DNA from: a virus
Taxonomy: Duplodnaviria > Heunggongvirae > Uroviricota > Caudoviricetes
DNA length: 19,034 nucleotides
Virus record (IMG/VR): IMGVR_UViG_2740892047_000005
Strand: one strand, 5' to 3'
In this document: piece by piece, positions 1,547 to 9,271 of the stretch
Numbering within the stretch: position 1 is the first letter of the stretch
Layout of the letters: each line of letters begins with the position of its first letter
Program-made: the position numbers and the translations under genes
Notes under the pieces: generated by a model
Seen by the model: only the letters and a program-made list of their open reading frames with translations
Told to the model about the DNA's origin: nothing
Database searches by the model: none

Positions 1547-1927
1547 TCAGTCAGCCCAACCTGATTTCGAGTTTATTTGGGTTTCTGACATTGTGTATTT
1601 CTTAATCGTGTCATCGTCAAAAAGAATAGTAAGTTCTTTTTTCGTACCGTTCGTTCCATTATGGAATAATCCATAGAATGGAATAAAAGTGGTGCCATTA
1701 ACTTTTACTTTTGCAAAGGCGTACTTCCAGATCTCGTTTCCACTGTCAGTATATGAAACAGCATCAGGAGAACCAAAGTAAGATTTAACCTCATTCTTGG
1801 TTGTTTTACCTTCCTGAAGTTTAGACTGGACACTAATTTCAGTTTCATTTTTGAGTTGCTGGTTGCCTGAAGAAGCACACCCAGCCAATAGAGATGCCAT
1901 CATGGCAGCGATTAGGATTTTTCTCAT
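1547..1927 (-). CDS. Lipoprotein (126 aa) with signal peptide and lipobox LLAGC; AT-rich moron between OL and cI (rexAB position)
   Basis: N-terminus MRKILIAAMMASLLAGC has a signal peptidase II lipobox. The mature part is S/T/N/K-rich and reminiscent of small BamE/OmlA-like lipoproteins (not verified). Lies 229 bp downstream of cI on the same strand, with a terminator after it. Confidence 0.8.
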   Translation of the reverse strand: MRKILIAAMMASLLAGCASSGNQQLKNETEISVQSKLQEGKTTKNEVKSYFGSPDAVSYTDSGNEIWKYAFAKVKVNGTTFIPFYGLFHNGTNGTKKELTILFDDDTIKKYTMSETQINSKSGWAD

Positions 1928-3211: not shown

Positions 3212-3757
3212 ATGACTATGCAACCACTTACATACCAACAGACTAGCGGATTTAGCCCGACTGCGGTGATAAATCGTTCTCAAACAAAACAGGCGCCAGG
3301 CCACGAAAAAATCCGTGATGCCGTTCGCGCCTGGTCGGCTGCAGATAATCAGGATGTTGTTGCCGCACTCATTGTGAATGAGTATCGGGAGCAGGGCGGC
3401 GGCACCATCGATTTCCCTGATGATGTCAGCCGTGCACGCCAGAAGCTGTTCCGCTTCCTCGATAACAAATTCGATTCTGAAAAATACCGAAATAACGTGC
3501 GTGAACTGACCCCGGCAATTCTGGCGGTACTACCGCTGGAATATCGCGGCCACCTGGTTGAGCAGGATAGCTACATGGCTCGGCTGGCTGAAATGGAAAA
3601 GGAACTCAGTGAGGCAAAACAGGCTGTCATTCTCAACGCACCACGCCACCAGAAACTGAAGGAGATGAGTGAAGGCATTGTGTCGATGTTTCGTGTGGAC
3701 CCGGATTTGGCTGGTCCACTGATGGCGATGGTCACCACCATGCTGGGGGCAATATGA
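3212..3757 (+). CDS. YdaT-like protein (CII-position regulator of Rac-type immunity regions), 181 aa
   Basis: Segments IVNEYREQGGGTIDFP and RELTPAILAVLPLEYRGHL resemble E. coli Rac YdaT as I recall it. Immediately downstream of the cro-like gene and upstream of O. Confidence 0.75.
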   Translation: MTMQPLTYQQTSGFSPTAVINRSQTKQAPGHEKIRDAVRAWSAADNQDVVAALIVNEYREQGGGTIDFPDDVSRARQKLFRFLDNKFDSEKYRNNVRELTPAILAVLPLEYRGHLVEQDSYMARLAEMEKELSEAKQAVILNAPRHQKLKEMSEGIVSMFRVDPDLAGPLMAMVTTMLGAI

Positions 3758-3843
3758 CAGGTTCGGAAATGGCGAAAGCCGGTCTGCGCGAACAGAACCG
3801 ACTTTCAGGTGCAAATCGTAACACACTCATTGCGGGAGGAATT

Positions 3844-4773
3844 ATGGCAAACACTGCTGAGATATTCAATTTTCCAGTGCCGGATGTGGCACAAAAGGAG
3901 CGGCGCGTGGCAGATCTCGACGATGGTTATACGCGCATTGCAAATGAGTTGCTGGAAGCTGTGATGCTGGCCGGATTAACACAGCACCAGCTTCTGGTCT
4001 TCCTGGCTGTCATGCGCAAAACATATGGCTTTAATAAAAGACTGGATTGGGTGAGCAACGAGCAACTTTCCGAATTGACCGGGATATTGCCGCACAAGTG
4101 TTCTGCTGCAAAAAGCGTTCTGGTAAAGCGTGGGATTCTTATTCAGAGCGGGCGAAATATCGGCATTAATAATGTGGTCAGTGAATGGTCAACATTACCC
4201 GAATCAGGTAAGAAAAATAAAGTTTACCTGAAAGAGGTAAATTTACCTGAATCAGGTAAAAAAAGTTTACCCAAATCAGGTAAAGGCGTTTACCCGAATC
4301 AGGTAAACACAAAAGACAAACTAACAAAAGACAATATAAAACCTTTTTCGTCCGAGAATTCTGGCGAATCCTCTGACCAGCCAGAAAACGACCTTCCTGT
4401 GGTGAAACCGGATGCTGCAATTCAGAGTGGCAGCAAGTGGGGGACAGCAGAAGACCTGACCGCCGCAGAGTGGATGTTTGACATGGTGAAGACCATCGCG
4501 CCATCAGCCAGAAAACCGAATTTTGCAGGGTGGGCTAACGATATCCGCCTGATGCGTGAACGTGACGGACGTAACCACCGCGAAATGTGCGTGCTGTTCC
4601 GCTGGGCATGCCAGGACAACTTCTGGTCCGGTAACGTGTTGTGTCCGGCCAAACTCCGCGACAAGTGGACACAGCTCGAAATCAACCGAAACAAGCAGCA
4701 GGCTGGCGTGACAGCCGGCAAACCAAAACTCGATCTGACGAATACTGACTGGATTTACGGGGTGGAGCTATGA
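3844..4773 (+). CDS. O: Replication initiator protein O (lambda-type), 309 aa
   Basis: From ATG 3844 (SD GGGAGGA at 3834-3840): MANTAEIFNF...RRVADLDDGYTRIANELLEA...; C-terminal half AEWMFDMVKTIAPSARKPNFAGWANDIRLMRERDGRNHREMCVLFRWACQDNFWSGNVL... matches lambda O from memory. The ORF track extends it upstream to 3754, overlapping the YdaT-like gene. Confidence 0.92.
   Translation: MANTAEIFNFPVPDVAQKERRVADLDDGYTRIANELLEAVMLAGLTQHQLLVFLAVMRKTYGFNKRLDWVSNEQLSELTGILPHKCSAAKSVLVKRGILIQSGRNIGINNVVSEWSTLPESGKKNKVYLKEVNLPESGKKSLPKSGKGVYPNQVNTKDKLTKDNIKPFSSENSGESSDQPENDLPVVKPDAAIQSGSKWGTAEDLTAAEWMFDMVKTIAPSARKPNFAGWANDIRLMRERDGRNHREMCVLFRWACQDNFWSGNVLCPAKLRDKWTQLEINRNKQQAGVTAGKPKLDLTNTDWIYGVEL
4196..4350. 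repeat. Origin of replication inside O: iterons (4196-4306) plus AT-rich unwinding region (4307-4350)
   Basis: Direct repeats ttacccgaatcaggtaa (4196), tttacctgaaagaggtaa (4223, degenerate), tttacctgaatcaggtaa (4242), tttacccaaatcaggtaa (4266), tttacccgaatcaggtaa (4289), followed by acacaaaagacaaactaacaaaagacaatataaaacc. Same arrangement as ori-lambda inside O. Confidence 0.8.
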
Positions 4774-5471
4774 AAAACATCGCCGCACAGATGATTAATT
4801 TTGACCGTGAGCAGATGCGCCGGATCGCCAACAACATGCCGGAACAGTACGACGAAAAGCCGCAGGTACAGCAGGTGGCGCAGATAATCAACGGTGTATT
4901 CAGCCAGTTACTGGCAACTTTCCCGGCTAGCCTGGCTAATCGTGACCAGAACGAACTGAACGAAATCCGCCGCCAGTGGGTTCTGGCTTTCCGGGAAAAC
5001 GGGATCACCACGATGGAACAGGTGAGCGCCGGAATGCGTATCGCCCGTCGGCAGAGTAGACCATTCCTGCCATCACCTGGGCAGTTTGTCGCCTGGTGCC
5101 GGGAAGAAGCATCCGTTAACGCCGGGCTGCCAAACGTCAGCGAGCTGGTTGATATGGTTTACGAGTATTGCCGGAAGCGTGGCCTGTATCCGGACGCAGA
5201 GTCTTATCCATGGAAATCAAACGCGCACTACTGGCTGGTTACCAACCTGTACCAGAACATGCGGGCCAATGCGCTGACTGACGCGGAATTACGGCGTAAG
5301 GCTGCCGATGAGCTGACCTGTATGACCGCGCGAATTAACCGTGGTGAGGCGATACCTGAACCAGTAAAACAACTTCCTGTCATGGGCGGTAGACCTCTAA
5401 ATCGTGCACAGTCTTTGGCGAAGATCGCAGAAATCAAAGCTAAGTTCGGACTGAAAGGAGCAAGTGTATGA
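4770..5471 (+). CDS. P: Replication protein P (DnaB helicase loader), 233 aa
   Basis: MKNIAAQMINFDREQMRRIANNMPEQYDEKPQVQQVAQIINGVFSQLL... matches lambda P essentially throughout (from memory). Start overlaps the O stop (ATGA). Confidence 0.95.
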   Translation: MKNIAAQMINFDREQMRRIANNMPEQYDEKPQVQQVAQIINGVFSQLLATFPASLANRDQNELNEIRRQWVLAFRENGITTMEQVSAGMRIARRQSRPFLPSPGQFVAWCREEASVNAGLPNVSELVDMVYEYCRKRGLYPDAESYPWKSNAHYWLVTNLYQNMRANALTDAELRRKAADELTCMTARINRGEAIPEPVKQLPVMGGRPLNRAQSLAKIAEIKAKFGLKGASV

Positions 5472-5620
5472 CGGGCAAAGAGGCAATTATTCATTGTTTG
5501 GGAATGCATAAGCGTTTCAATGCGCTAGACGTCGCTGCGACAACAGGAGTAACAATAACCAGCATAAATCAGGTGACTAGAGAGTCAAAATTTTCGTCAT
5601 TGATGGTTTGCTTCAGGTAA
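5468..5620 (+). pseudogene. ren: ren remnant: first ~35 codons of lambda-like Ren, then unrelated sequence and an early stop (50 aa)
   Basis: Hand translation from ATG 5468 (overlapping the P stop): MTGKEAIIHCLGMHKRFNALDVAATTGVTITSINQ then VTRESKFSSLMVCFR*. Lambda Ren starts MTGKEAIIHYLGTHNSFCAPDVAALTGATVTSINQAAAKMARAG... (from memory). Divergence coincides with the start of AT-rich DNA near 5573. Confidence 0.6.
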
Positions 5621-5818
5621 ATTAGCACTAAAAAAATACCTAGTTAGAAGTACCTCAATCTATATCTATTGTTATCAATGAGAGCCGGTAGAACTCGACG
5701 ATAAAGCTGGTACATCATCATCCTCAAACTTGTATAATCAGAGTCCTAAAACCGGCAATATAACTACGCTGTTGCTTCAGAATATAATGGTGAATCGTAT
5801 AATGATGTTATGAATATA

Positions 5819-6796
5819 TTAAATTGCAGGATCTTTTCCAACGGCAAGGAAAGGTTCTTGGTCTAGTGCAGTAAACGAAGCTTCGTTATTAAGCAAACGA
5901 ATAAAATATAATTTTTGTCTTTTGGTGGATAACTCAATTAACCCTGCTTGATTTATAATTATATTTCTTCCTAATATTGGGAAGTTTTGTATTAAACGCT
6001 GAATGTTAGCGATGGTTATAGTTCCGCTTTTTATTAGAGAACTGTTTGCTGTTGTAGCTAGTTTACGCATAAAATTTCTATTTTTATGCATATCATCAAA
6101 TATACCAAGTGGGTTTTGCAAGTTAGAAGTATCTAGGATATTCAATCCAATTATATGCGGTGTCGCTGTTGCTGCTAAATTATTAATTATTTGCTCGAGT
6201 CCATATACTCGCTCTAATAAGTTAATGTTTAAAGCATAGTATTTATTATTAAAATAAAAGAAATCAACATTTCCGTTTATATCAATACTGTCATGGTTAA
6301 CTTCGTCTAGTGTTCGTCCATTGGCAGAGAAATAGGATAGTCTTGTTTTTTTATGCAAAGATATTGGGTATTTATGTTGATAAACTACAACTCCATTACC
6401 TTGCCCATCGCAGAGATAGTATACAATTCCTTTAACAGAAGATAAGTCTTGCTGTTTGAAATCAAAATCAGGAGGGGTGTTATTAACTCCGAAATTAAGT
6501 ACATCTGGCATTTTTGCTAGAGCATCTGGGAGATGGTTTATTACATTATAATCATATTCGTAAACTTGTTTATCTCTATTTAGAAGGGAGGATACCAACG
6601 GCAAAAAGTTTTGACCAGCATTAGGGGCGATAACATCACGTTTAAGTGATTTGCTAAAAGATTGGGTTAATTTTTTTTCTGCACCAGGTTCTAATGCTAC
6701 TCGGTATATTTGTGTTATCCCTTTGTGTTCTGCAACGAAAAAGGCTTCACCAGAGATGTTGGCAGAATTTAAGATGTTATCTATTGCTGTAAACAT
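5819..6796 (-). CDS. Hypothetical 325-aa soluble protein, second gene of the AT-rich two-gene cassette; candidate defence effector (possibly KwaB/DUF4868-like, unverified)
   Basis: Intact ORF with RBS GAGGG 4 nt before ATG 6796. Starts 15 bp after the stop of the upstream membrane-protein gene on the same strand. No Walker A, no GS...DxD nucleotidyltransferase motif and no obvious nuclease motif seen by eye. N/I/L/K-rich, consistent with low-GC origin. Confidence 0.8.
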   Translation of the reverse strand: MFTAIDNILNSANISGEAFFVAEHKGITQIYRVALEPGAEKKLTQSFSKSLKRDVIAPNAGQNFLPLVSSLLNRDKQVYEYDYNVINHLPDALAKMPDVLNFGVNNTPPDFDFKQQDLSSVKGIVYYLCDGQGNGVVVYQHKYPISLHKKTRLSYFSANGRTLDEVNHDSIDINGNVDFFYFNNKYYALNINLLERVYGLEQIINNLAATATPHIIGLNILDTSNLQNPLGIFDDMHKNRNFMRKLATTANSSLIKSGTITIANIQRLIQNFPILGRNIIINQAGLIELSTKRQKLYFIRLLNNEASFTALDQEPFLAVGKDPAI

Positions 6797-6811
6797 AATG
6801 CCCTCATTATA

Positions 6812-7411
6812 TTAAACAATCTTTGCGAGACAAGTGTCATTATCTATTTTTATATATTTTATAGTGCTTTTATTATTTATTTCTCCACGACATATTATCA
6901 CAAATTCTTTTTTTCCGCGGTCGTTAATATTCGCTCTAAAAATTCTGAACCCTAATAGTGCAAGTGACGGATTTGAATAAAATCGATTTGTTTTAACATA
7001 AATCATTCCGATTGCAATTATCATTATTAATAGATTCAACATTGTTCGTTTGCTATTTACATCAGTAAAGACTAGTGGCATGACATAAGTTGTCAGGAAC
7101 TCTAAATGTTCATGGCTCTCGTTTTTTACGTCGGAAACAGTACATGCGACAGACCAACCAGAGTTAAATGATAAAAACAAATATAAAAATATAAAAAAAC
7201 CTGCCACCATCATTATAAAACTAAATAAAAAAACTATATTTTTGGGTGTGATTTTTGAAATGAATATAGCAAAGTCTTTATTGTTATAAGTTGAAATTAT
7301 AGTAAATATATTTTTATCATATGACATTATAAATAGAGAAACAAATAATAGCCATAGAGATAATATATATAGCGCATACTTTAAAGCTGTTCTATTTTTC
7401 ATGTTTTTCAT
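6812..7411 (-). CDS. Predicted multi-pass inner-membrane protein (about 4 TM helices), first gene of the AT-rich cassette; candidate sensor/membrane component (possibly KwaA-like, unverified)
   Basis: Hydrophobic segments ALKYALYILSLWLLFVSLFIMSY, IVFLFSFIMMVAGFFIFLYLFLSF, LEFLTTYVMPLVF, MLNLLIMIIAIGMIYV, then a ~55-aa charged C-terminal tail. Start uncertain: ATG 7411 (MKNMKNRT...), ATG 7402 or GTG 7426 (ORF track). Confidence 0.75.
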   Translation of the reverse strand: MKNMKNRTALKYALYILSLWLLFVSLFIMSYDKNIFTIISTYNNKDFAIFISKITPKNIVFLFSFIMMVAGFFIFLYLFLSFNSGWSVACTVSDVKNESHEHLEFLTTYVMPLVFTDVNSKRTMLNLLIMIIAIGMIYVKTNRFYSNPSLALLGFRIFRANINDRGKKEFVIICRGEINNKSTIKYIKIDNDTCLAKIV

Positions 7412-8362
7412 CTCTTGGGGAAACACCGTTTTGATACCGTTGCCAGCGAATATAACACTTTAATTAATTACGGTAAGTAACTTATAACAGTCAATAGATG
7501 TAAATAGAGATGGTGTGGAATCATTACTTGATGCTTTGGCACGCTACCGCCACAAACTCGTTGTGGTGAGTCTGTGGTATGTAGTCAAAACATAGATTTG
7601 CTGTTGTAATGTTACACCTGCATGGGTAACAAAATCTAGTGCGATACACATAGCCACTGACCATCTATACTGGTTTAATATACAGCATTTTATGACGATT
7701 CTCAATTATGAAACTAACTATTTTACAACCAGTTATGGATATCTATGCTTTTATGTACTAAAAATTCTTTAGTTACAGATGTATTGATGACGAGAAATTG
7801 CTAAAGCAAGATGAGTAAGGAACTAAATCAATAAAGTGGGGGCGGGGGGAGTTCGAGTGGCTAGGAGCATAGCGCTTGATTACTTTTGGTGGTTGAAAAA
7901 TGTTCGGTTGGGTGTCGCTAGGTGACTAATAGCTAAATTGGGAGATATACATATATAATATGAAATAAATCCCCACTTAATGCTTGTGAAATATTTATGT
8001 GACAAGCGGGTGTTCTTATTGATATTAAAATTCAATAACAGTGAGTTTTTATTCTTTTCTAAGTTTTGTAAATTGTTCTCACAGAGAAGGTTTAATTGTA
8101 TGTGCCTATATTTTTTTCTAGTGAATATAATGTCGGAATATATTAATATTGGCATATTCAGCAATGACTTCAAATATTCTTGATTTTCGATAATCAACTC
8201 GCCATAATCTCGTTGCTGTCGGCCTGAACATCCGGCGGTGGGGTTGCGCTAAACGGGGACGTTTATGCGCACACACAATCCAAACTCTCTTCTCCCTTCA
8301 CAGATGCAGAAATGCACCTGCGATTTTTTGTATTCTGCGTTTTACCTCTACGGAGGTGAAGC

Positions 8363-8818
8363 GTGAACCTCCCACAAGATGGTATCAAATTGCATCGCGG
8401 TAACTTCACCGCTATCGGTCGGCAGATCCAGCCTTATCTGGAGGAGGGCAAATGCTTTCGCATGGTGCTTAAACCGTGGCGCGAGAGACGCAGTCTTTCC
8501 CAGAATGCACTCAGCCACATGTGGTACAGCGAAATCAGTGAATACCTCATCAGCAAGGGTAAAACGTTCGCCACTCCAGCTTGGGTAAAAGATGCTCTCA
8601 AACACACATATCTCGGTTATGAAACCAAAGACCTGGTTGATGTCGTAACCGGTGATATCACCACTATCCAGTCGTTACGCCATACCTCCGATCTTGATAC
8701 CGGAGAGATGTATGTCTTCCTGTGTAAGGTTGAAGCCTGGGCGATGAATATTGGCTGCCACCTGACTATTCCGCAGAGCTGCGAGTTCCAGCAGCTCCGC
8801 GACAAACAGGAGGCGTAA
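8363..8818 (+). CDS. ybcN: YbcN-like nin-region protein, 151 aa
   Basis: GTG start at 8363 with SD GGAGG (8352-8356). [58 protein letters not shown]... matches DLP12 YbcN as I recall it. First gene of a tightly coupled nin-type operon. Confidence 0.8.
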
Positions 8819-8988
8819 TGGCTACACCGCTTATTCGTGTCATGAACGGACACATCTACAGAGTACCAAATCGTCGTAAGCGTAAACCGGAGCTGAAGCC
8901 TTCCGAAATACCAACACTGCTCGGATATACCGCCAGCCTGGTTGATAAAAAATGGTTGCGACTGGCAGCAAGGAGGAATCATGGCTGA
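8818..8988 (+). CDS. ninE: NinE-like small protein, 56 aa
   Basis: Hand translation from ATG 8818 (overlaps the ybcN stop, TAATG): [56 protein letters not shown]. Basic and small, in the NinE position. Below the ORF-track length cut-off. Confidence 0.7.
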   Translation: MATPLIRVMNGHIYRVPNRRKRKPELKPSEIPTLLGYTASLVDKKWLRLAARRNHG

Positions 8989-9271
8989 TTTGAGAAAAGC
9001 AGCGCGTAGTCGGGAATGCCAGGTAAGAATCCCTGGCGTATGTAATGGCAACCCTGAAACGTCTGTACTGGCACATATCCGGCTGACTGGATTGTGCGGC
9101 ACCGGTACCAAACCGCCAGACCTGATTGCCACCATTGCATGTTCTGCCTGCCACGACGAAATCGACCGCCGCACACATTTTGTCGATGCTGCATATGCAA
9201 AAGAATGCGCGCTGGAAGGTATGGCGAGAACACAGGTTATCTGGCTGAAAGAGGGGGTTATTAAGGCGTGA
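8981..9271 (+). CDS. ybcO: YbcO-like protein (DUF1364 family, Cys-rich putative nuclease), 96 aa
   Basis: ATG 8981 with SD AGGAGG (8971-8976): [64 protein letters not shown]... Cys/His-rich. The ORF track extends it upstream to 8942. Confidence 0.8.

Follow-up and report, generated by a model that had tools for sequence, protein, structure and literature searches.

A LexA-type operator and a leader RNA predicted upstream of the Kiwa genes in a DLP12/phage-82-like prophage of Escherichia coli

The LexA boxes of dinI genes in Salmonella Gifsy prophages are located 19 bp from the start codon, and these genes are SOS-induced 5- to 23-fold (PMC8072944); dinI-antirepressor operons of the same prophages have also been described (Lemire et al. 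2011, as cited in PMC8072944). For tisB, the SOS box is situated 236 bp from the ATG (PMC8072944, table). The Kiwa anti-phage system has been studied in E. coli ECOR8/12/49, D9 and O55:H7, and its KwaB protein is inhibited by Gam and shows a functional interaction with RecBCD (bioRxiv 10.1101/2023.02.26.530102). In the present study, the DNA upstream of the Kiwa genes kwaA and kwaB was analysed in a sequence of 19,034 nucleotides (nt), IMG/VR virus record IMGVR_UViG_2740892047_000005 (hereafter the window), which is an E. coli lambdoid prophage of the DLP12/phage-82 kind. To our knowledge, Kiwa has so far been studied under native or plasmid promoters only, and its regulation has not been considered. 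A moron is a cargo unit that combines its own independent promoter with a gene. The reading favoured here, with a probability of roughly two in three, is that a Kiwa moron under SOS control and gated by a leader occupies the ren/ylcH cargo hot spot of the prophage in the window, accompanied by unrelated filler and by phage backbone; it rests on sequence comparison, and the coordinates of all features are collected in Table 1.

The two genes downstream of the putative leader encode a defence pair of 196 and 325 amino acids (aa), which matched the PADLOC profiles KwaA and KwaB and bear the corresponding RefSeq names. The cassette is a Kiwa anti-phage system, and it is antisense to the phage early-right operon. 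An earlier reading made from the sequence alone (the sequence-only reading) had placed the start of kwaA at 7426. RefSeq gives ATG 7402, a position that is backed by alignment with 13 homologous loci and is aligned across 14 loci. As kwaA starts at this ATG, the non-coding interval begins at 7403.

The interval had been described as about 0.9 kb of AT-rich DNA without a credible open reading frame (ORF). This description stood for 7403-8264, but it did not hold for 8180-8362, which is not AT-rich and into which ylcH (8265-8366) extends. The GC content was 26-38% across ~7150-8200, compared with ~50% in the flanking phage backbone, and was 52% at 8200-8499. The interval was found to be a mosaic, made up of three segments that differ in their history, namely segment A (7403-7705, minus strand), segment B (7706-8179) and segment C (8180-8362). 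In near-identity searches, the whole 936-bp interval was present in 4 of 5,426 complete E. coli genomes, and the 183 bp of segment C were present in 2,838 of them; at low stringency, 7427-8200 matched the same four genomes only. Homology to K-12 DLP12 stopped inside ren at 5553 and restarted exactly at 8180, which identifies 5554-8179 as a cargo slot. The interval had also been called long for a leader, and this is explained by its composition, as the cassette accounts for only ~300 bp of it, the remainder being unrelated DNA. Most of the interval is ordinary (backbone and filler), and its valuable part is the 300 bp adjoining kwaA.

Segment A is the upstream module of kwaA, and was conserved at more than 13 other enterobacterial prophage loci. 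The loci used for comparison (designated by L numbers) encode close KwaA relatives (81-84% identity) from Enterobacter, Salmonella and IMG/VR prophage contigs. By blastn and nhmmer, the only part of the interval shared with Kiwa relatives was 7486-7691, at an equal distance from kwaA and with ~70% identity. These relatives were L002, L004, L015-L027 and three metagenome contigs, a fourth contig (L124) being a copy from the lineage of the window. Similarity between the Kiwa modules did not extend beyond the -35/promoter at one end or past the kwaB stop codon at the other end. The most highly conserved block of the upstream alignment was ACTGTAyATTAAAmCAGT.

A putative LexA box was identified at the upstream end of segment A. 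The consensus used for this test was a palindrome of 20 bp, near TACTGTATATATATACAGTA, in which the core triplets CTG and CAG are 10 bp apart and the centre is AT-rich. The sequence TGCTGTATATTAAACCAGTA fitted this consensus at 15 of 20 positions, including both core triplets, and was the sole such site in the 19-kb window, for which 0.007 sites were expected by chance in first-order Markov simulations. The box was also scored with the heterology index, a criterion for LexA-binding sites reportedly set out by Lewis et al. in 1994. The rough index of the Kiwa box was 4.2, with 2.4-6.0 for its homologues, 1.6-9.3 for the training range and at least 13 for the remaining CTG-N10-CAG sites in the window; these values are approximate, as the matrix was built from a set of E. 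coli sites and is not the published one. The core positions of the box were invariant in 13 homologous loci, and its flanks had diverged. The cassette promoter, which the sequence-only reading had expected somewhere in the interval, was found as a promoter-like site of sigma-70 type whose -10 hexamer lies within the LexA box and is conserved in other loci. The homologous promoter also passed the scan in L022 (TTGGAA-18-TATATT) and in L015 (TTGAAC-16-TATATT). From the -10 hexamer, kwaA-sense transcription would start near 7670. LexA would bind to this box, and kwaAB would be induced by DNA damage.

Two LexA boxes were present upstream of kwaA in the sibling loci L016, L015, L018-L023, L025 and L002 (in L016 at 3428-3447 and 3714-3733). 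In most siblings, kwaA is divergent from a dinI-like gene with its own LexA box ~19 bp from its start, and the dinI-type box was mostly ~285 bp from the Kiwa box (~600 bp in L022 and L025). This proximity to a dinI-like gene would be expected if the whole AT-rich stretch were xenogeneic, probably H-NS-bound filler, in which the LexA box and the leader blocks were relics of a Gifsy-type dinI/antirepressor unit with no present role for Kiwa. The lack of constraint on 7706-8179 (see below) would fit such an origin, as would the observation that the palindromic box of L016 also yields a promoter-like match directed away from kwaA. However, both the window and L004 were without the dinI-like gene and its box and yet retained the Kiwa LexA box, which therefore travels with Kiwa. 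Moreover, the box and the blocks on the kwaA side were invariant despite divergence of the leader to ~70%, whereas the other side was unalignable between lineages, and the structure signal was confined to the kwaA-sense strand. An origin as filler with relics was consequently judged unlikely. The dinI side was either lost from the window and L004 or was never in them. For the distant KwaA loci (34-66% identity), no LexA box was detected within 1 kb; the LexA box and the leader are clade-specific among the Kiwa loci examined.

The favoured reading, of an operator followed by a gating leader, also draws on the folding of the predicted transcript of segment A. In sliding windows, the folding z-score of 7470-7649 was -3.2 to -4.2 on the minus strand versus -1.0 to -1.5 on the plus strand. 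Because the folding signal was confined to the kwaA-sense strand, the feature is more probably at the level of RNA than of DNA. The regulatory elements that had been suggested for the interval would thus be a conserved LexA box and a conserved leader with strand-specific structure. Over the consensus helices of the leader, 94% of the alignment cells were paired. For helix 2, the CCACAGACUC/GAGUUUGUGG hairpin, the proportion was 98.6%, and the only changes were of the G-C/G-U type. A hairpin CCACAA-ACTCG-TTGTGG had been noted previously and is indeed present at 7550-7566, but it is only one of two alternative pairings; it was the larger alternative, a stem of CCACAGACUC with GAGUUUGUGG on the kwaA-sense (minus) strand, that was retained in other lineages. 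For the invariant 12-mer GGCGGTAGCGTG, no partner beyond chance was found elsewhere in the window.

The invariant block CCATCTCT is the exact complement of the conserved sequence AGAGATGG (7415-7408), which overlaps AAGAGATG, the ribosome-binding region of kwaA. The seven central pairs between CCATCTCT and AGAGATGG were retained in 10 of 10 leaders, bar one mismatch in L025, and CCATCTCT was paired with the Shine-Dalgarno (SD) region both by RNAalifold and by the minimum-free-energy fold of the window. In this anti-SD:SD helix 95% of the cells were paired, with zero covariation, there being no variation to covary, and the pairing probability was 0.6-0.99 in six of the ten leaders and 0.05 or less in the other four, among them the window. 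CCATCTCT is a candidate for sequestration of the SD. An ATG at 7411-7409 (minus strand) inside AAGAGATG was in the kwaA frame in the window and in both L004 and L022; in the homologues of AAGAGATG, it formed a start-stop (ATG-TAA/ATG-TAG) in the L016 group and L015, and it was absent in L025. As this codon is a start-stop or is absent in some lineages, the AAGAGATG block is not kept for its ATG.

No conserved reading frame was found in the leader, as the ORF frames differed between lineages. A candidate upstream ORF (uORF) of 23-30 codons, which spans both invariant motifs, was observed at 7551-7470 (minus strand) in the window and in L004, L015, L016 and L025. The leader might encode a small protein, from a uORF of ~24 codons running from the GTG of GTGGCGG through CCATCTCT (VAVACQK...PSLYVSV...); its translation would unfold the anti-SD helix, and that of kwaA would be coupled to it, with a frameshifted remnant in the window. 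The frame was open in four of six lineages, including one with an in-frame 3-nt indel, the stop codon was at the same aligned position in four lineages, and replacements in PSL(Y/F)V(S/A)x(D/E) were conservative. On the other hand, a 2-nt deletion shifts the frame in the window, and L022 is without the start codon and has an internal stop. The variable columns (13, 16 and 16 of 25 per codon position) revealed no codon periodicity, no SD sequence precedes the GTG, and no family matches were found in Pfam or PHROGs. A translated uORF is very improbable in the light of these observations.

The extended leader element was found only beside Kiwa in motif scans of viral and metagenome sequences. The viral scan with TGKGGCGGTAGCGTG and the metagenome scan with GGCGGTAGCGTG-N-CCATCTCT returned mostly chance matches. 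A known small RNA (sRNA), another option raised for the interval, received no support, as there was no Rfam covariance-model match at E <= 1 for 5400-9000 on either strand.

Other motifs were considered for the conserved block, and those of sigma-54, CRP, IHF, boxA/boxB and CsrA, judged by eye, did not fit. Two intra-interval repeats were also set aside. A direct repeat of 27 nt with 74% identity (7548-7574/8200-8226) links the Kiwa leader hairpin to the -10 region of the backbone, and an inverted repeat of 26 nt (7633-7658/7856-7881) brackets the LexA box; their number was approximately that expected by chance (0.5-1 per region by the author's estimate), and they were not conserved in other lineages.

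Several observations weigh against an SOS-controlled, leader-gated Kiwa. The z-score of the whole leader was only -1.0 to -1.6, and the probability of the anti-SD:SD pairing was 0.00-0.05 in the window itself and in L016, L022 and L025. Covariation in the leader was weak, with three double-change cells and a score that was reached by 29 of 500 shuffles; this is attributable to the paired blocks, which barely vary, and the test was underpowered, as the scans brought only known or near-identical Kiwa loci. The homologous promoters of L016 and L004 were just under the scan threshold. No Kiwa report mentioning LexA or SOS was found, and the Kiwa preprint (bioRxiv 10.1101/2023.02.26.530102) has zero mentions of either; nothing on regulation came up when the literature was queried for Kiwa together with Gifsy or lambdoid terms. 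A LexA-repressed promoter would also be odd for a defence that is needed before infection, and a second, unrecognised promoter may exist. Lastly, in a recent broad RNA-seq survey, defence systems were generally anticorrelated with recA expression; the survey also names LexA as one of several global regulators that are linked to some defence genes.

The mechanism proposed from these features is as follows. The first step, seen in the sequence itself, is that Kiwa entered the ren/ylcH slot as a self-contained moron comprising operator-promoter, leader, kwaA and kwaB. In the resting lysogen, LexA on the operator, which covers both the -10 hexamer and the predicted start site, would keep kwaAB transcription low. 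Upon DNA damage, RecA* and self-cleavage of LexA would lead to derepression and to production of a long-leader mRNA. In this mRNA, the leader sequence CCAUCUCU would pair with the kwaA Shine-Dalgarno region, so that KwaA translation would be limited or conditioned, and the invariant hairpin/GGCGGUAGCGUG block probably serves as a binding or processing platform. On prophage induction, N-antiterminated transcription from pR would, judging by the gene order, run antisense through kwaB-kwaA. The sequence 7706-8179 would be unconstrained filler brought in with the insertion. Defence itself may be affected by such SOS and leader control. A wider proposition is that, in a clade of enterobacterial lambdoid/Gifsy-like prophages, Kiwa has joined the SOS regulon and is gated by a leader RNA outside Rfam, with an anti-SD sequence, with the invariant hairpin/GGCGGUAGCGUG block as a platform for a trans-acting factor, with damage pre-arming the defence and with pR antisense transcription shutting it off; this is put forward tentatively and is more doubtful than the moron reading itself.

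LexA-type control and a leader would appear to be new for Kiwa, and the leader RNA may be undescribed. A link between SOS and Kiwa is of interest in view of the inhibition of KwaB by Gam and of its functional interaction with RecBCD. If the proposal is true, DNA damage, which also wakes neighbouring prophages, would pre-arm the membrane-based Kiwa defence, and in the lysing cell Kiwa would be silenced by antisense transcription that reads through from the pR operon of the induced phage itself. The matter bears on how defence systems switch on and yet spare their carrier. The conserved LexA operator and leader offer a testable link of DNA damage or prophage induction to Kiwa expression. If sequestration occurs, a CCATCTCT-to-GGTAGAGA mutant should show higher kwaA translation, and a compensatory change on the SD side should restore the original state. 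More generally, a 'gene-free' stretch beside a defence cassette can be resolved into regulatory DNA, filler and backbone purely by comparing sequences.

Table 1. Features of the Kiwa cargo region and its surroundings (positions in the window)
Feature	Position	Strand	Remarks
kwaA, Kiwa membrane protein gene	6812..7402	-	PADLOC KwaA PDLC00220, E = 5e-88; RefSeq
kwaB (DUF4868), Kiwa effector gene	5819..6796	-	PADLOC KwaB PDLC00232, E = 7e-149; RefSeq
Predicted kwaA 5' leader, ~268 nt	7403..7670	-	Start inferred from -10 hexamer; ~70% identity across Kiwa prophage loci
kwaA ribosome-binding region AAGAGATG	7409..7416	-	AGAGA 8 nt before ATG; conserved block, AGAGAT alone strictly invariant
Candidate anti-Shine-Dalgarno CCATCTCT	7506..7513	-	Invariant in 10/10 aligned leaders
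Invariant 12-mer GGCGGTAGCGTG, core of consensus hairpin UGGCG-GUAGCG-UGCCA	7540..7551	-	Alignment; directly after CAGAC/GUYUG hairpin
Hairpin CCACAGACUC / GAGUUUGUGG	7550..7577 (7577-7550)	-	Contains CCACAA/TTGTGG as alternative pairing; CAGAC/GUYUG core conserved
Putative LexA (SOS) box, CTG-N10-CAG palindrome, TGCTGTATATTAAACCAGTA on kwaA strand	7668..7687 (7687-7668)		Consensus match
Sigma-70-type promoter-like site: -35 TTGAGA 7705-7700, 17-nt spacer, -10 TATATT 7682-7677	7677..7705	-	10/12
Orphan AT-rich spacer	7706..8179		Specific to window prophage lineage; 4/5,426 E. coli genomes plus same-lineage contigs
Promoter-like TTGATT-17-CATAAT, backbone start	8180..8208	+	Homologous to putative -35/-10 of phage 82
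Hairpin, 8 bp (3 G-U), 9-nt loop CCUGAACAU	8215..8239	+	Homologous to phage 82 'possible regulator-binding site'
ylcH / orf33, 33 codons, overlaps ybcN start	8265..8366	+	WP_072276232.1; K-12 b4588; phage 82 orf33
Terminator-like hairpin plus T-run, inside ylcH	8305-8332		Sequence scan
ren 5' stub, left edge of cargo slot 5554-8179	5472..5553	+	K-12 DLP12 homology ends at 5553

Segment B was found to be orphan DNA. When E. coli genomes, phages and plasmids were searched by blastn at low stringency, and ~130 fetched loci by nhmmer, the matches were copies from the same lineage only (L014, L124 and L129 being same-lineage copies of the window prophage), and apart from such copies no relative of 7706-8179 or of 5554-5818 was found anywhere. 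Among the same-lineage copies, the 474-bp spacer presented four substitutions and two indels, and the ~1.9 kb of leader and Kiwa genes only four changes, a substitution pattern consistent with no constraint on the spacer. No remnants of dinI or of an antirepressor were found in the orphan DNA.

The two ORFs that had been listed for this part are present, overlap and are of low-complexity appearance: one of 105 aa (7880..8197, minus strand) and one of 67 aa (7980..8183, plus strand). A search of 5.8 billion proteins with the 105-aa product gave a single match, a copy of the same locus; its contig shares 99.4% identity with the window, and an insertion of 1 nt there alters the product by a frameshift; indels at 7909 and 8118 in sibling copies likewise disrupt this ORF. 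The interval had also been proposed to hold decayed partners of a larger defence system. No such remnants were detected among the stop-to-stop pieces of at least 25 residues from all six frames of 7403-8264, none of which gave a match at E < 0.03 in Pfam or PHROGs, or in PADLOC, and a 122-aa piece gave no tblastn match in phages. The idea that 7403-8264 holds a defence partner, whether as an intact gene or as a pseudogene, was thus rejected, with no family homology and an ORF broken in siblings.

A G-rich stretch was observed on the plus strand at 7836-7925 (GTGGGGGCGGGGGGAG...), with a GC skew of +0.40 within the AT-rich orphan DNA; neither homology nor a structure signal was found for it. 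It might be supposed that this stretch, or the strand antisense to the leader, is an independent sRNA or antisense RNA gene that regulates Kiwa or phage genes. The GC skew of +0.40 at 7750-8049 and a plus-strand promoter-like site at 7722-7749 are compatible with such a gene, and several SOS loci have long leaders paired with antisense sRNAs, for example tisB/IstR (PMC8072944). Yet there was no Rfam match, no folding signal on either strand over 7680-8100 (z between ~-2.5 and +1.4) and no conservation outside the lineage, and the conserved block folded better on the kwaA-sense than on the antisense strand. A separate RNA gene was accordingly ranked the least probable of the explanations considered, slightly below the translated uORF. 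A type I toxin-antitoxin of the tisB/IstR kind was rejected separately, with no conserved small ORF and no antisense promoter or structure signal. An operator and a leader belonging to kwaA, next to unconstrained filler, remain the preferred reading of segments A and B.

The interval had been treated as one entity, and this did not hold at its right-hand end, which is ordinary lambdoid backbone containing the overlooked gene ylcH. Segment C shared 84% identity with phage 82 and 94% with K-12. At the site of the 8215-8239 hairpin, phage 82 (L003, 82-110) has a perfect 10-bp inverted repeat; both arms have diverged in the window and the loop is the same. The folding energy of this hairpin was -14.5 kcal/mol on the plus strand versus -3.8 on the minus strand, which suggests an RNA hairpin on the early-right (rightward) transcript rather than a protein operator. 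The predicted ylcH product shared 79-82% amino-acid identity with K-12 b4588 and phage 82 orf33, which occupy an equal position. Its first 19 codons are nearly identical at the nucleotide level (a single substitution), and for this reason the conservation of ylcH does not separate a coding from a cis-acting function.

The reference RefSeq locus for the prophage was that of strain DETEC-P622, whose cargo region (window ~6342-8379) is identical to the window. Its gene order is exo-bet-gam, kil, a repressor pair and the replication genes O and P (window 3754-5471, plus strand), followed by the KwaB-like gene and kwaA on the minus strand, and then, on the plus strand, by the 33-codon hypothetical ORF, ybcN, ninE, ybcO, rusA, ylcG, quuD and the lysis and packaging genes. 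The slot between ren and ylcH-ybcN holds IS3, emrE, ylcJ, ybcK, ybcL and ybcM in K-12. The ren/ylcH-ybcN junction is a cargo hot spot, and the ylcH-side breakpoints are identical in the window (5554-8179) and in K-12 DLP12 (L130, 771-6284). No terminal repeats of the transposon type were found flanking the cargo. A BamE-like outer-membrane lipoprotein gene was noted between kil and the repressor gene (window 1547-1927, minus strand) in the annotation of the sibling RefSeq locus, which is ~99% identical over the aligned 12.9 kb with one substitution in this gene; it looks like another moron-type cargo gene.

In comparison with described systems, the putative Kiwa operator resembles the promoters of Gifsy dinI-antirepressor operons and of colicins, in being a 20-bp palindrome of the CTGT-N8-ACAG type with a low heterology index, situated across the -10 and the start site of a prophage cargo gene that has a sigma-70 promoter. 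It differs from the Gifsy dinI boxes in its distance from the start codon (~270 nt, as against 19 bp) and in the genes that it would regulate, which are a Kiwa defence pair. The locus shares with tisB a LexA box far upstream, a long structured leader predicted to block the ribosome-binding site, and a membrane protein product; unlike tisB, it has no small toxin ORF, no identified antisense sRNA and no sequence or Rfam similarity. As in the Kiwa systems that have been studied, kwaA and kwaB form a two-gene operon associated with a prophage or mobile element. The E24377A-type Kiwa of E. coli belongs to a different clade, with 65% nucleotide identity, a location 52 bp downstream of hsdR and no leader. 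This second E. coli clade (L131, 2488-4115) was also seen to have type I restriction hsdR and ankyrin-repeat genes adjacent and no LexA box. Finally, 8180-8362 is 84-94% identical to phage 82 (record X92588, Mahdi et al. 1996) and to DLP12 of K-12 (b4588), and aligns with them through the -35/-10, the inverted repeat, orf33/ylcH and the ybcN ribosome-binding site. The window is distinguished from these two by its cargo, which is Kiwa in place of the emrE-ylcJ-ybcK-ybcL-ybcM of K-12, and by the changed arms of the inverted repeat, which pair as plus-strand RNA only.

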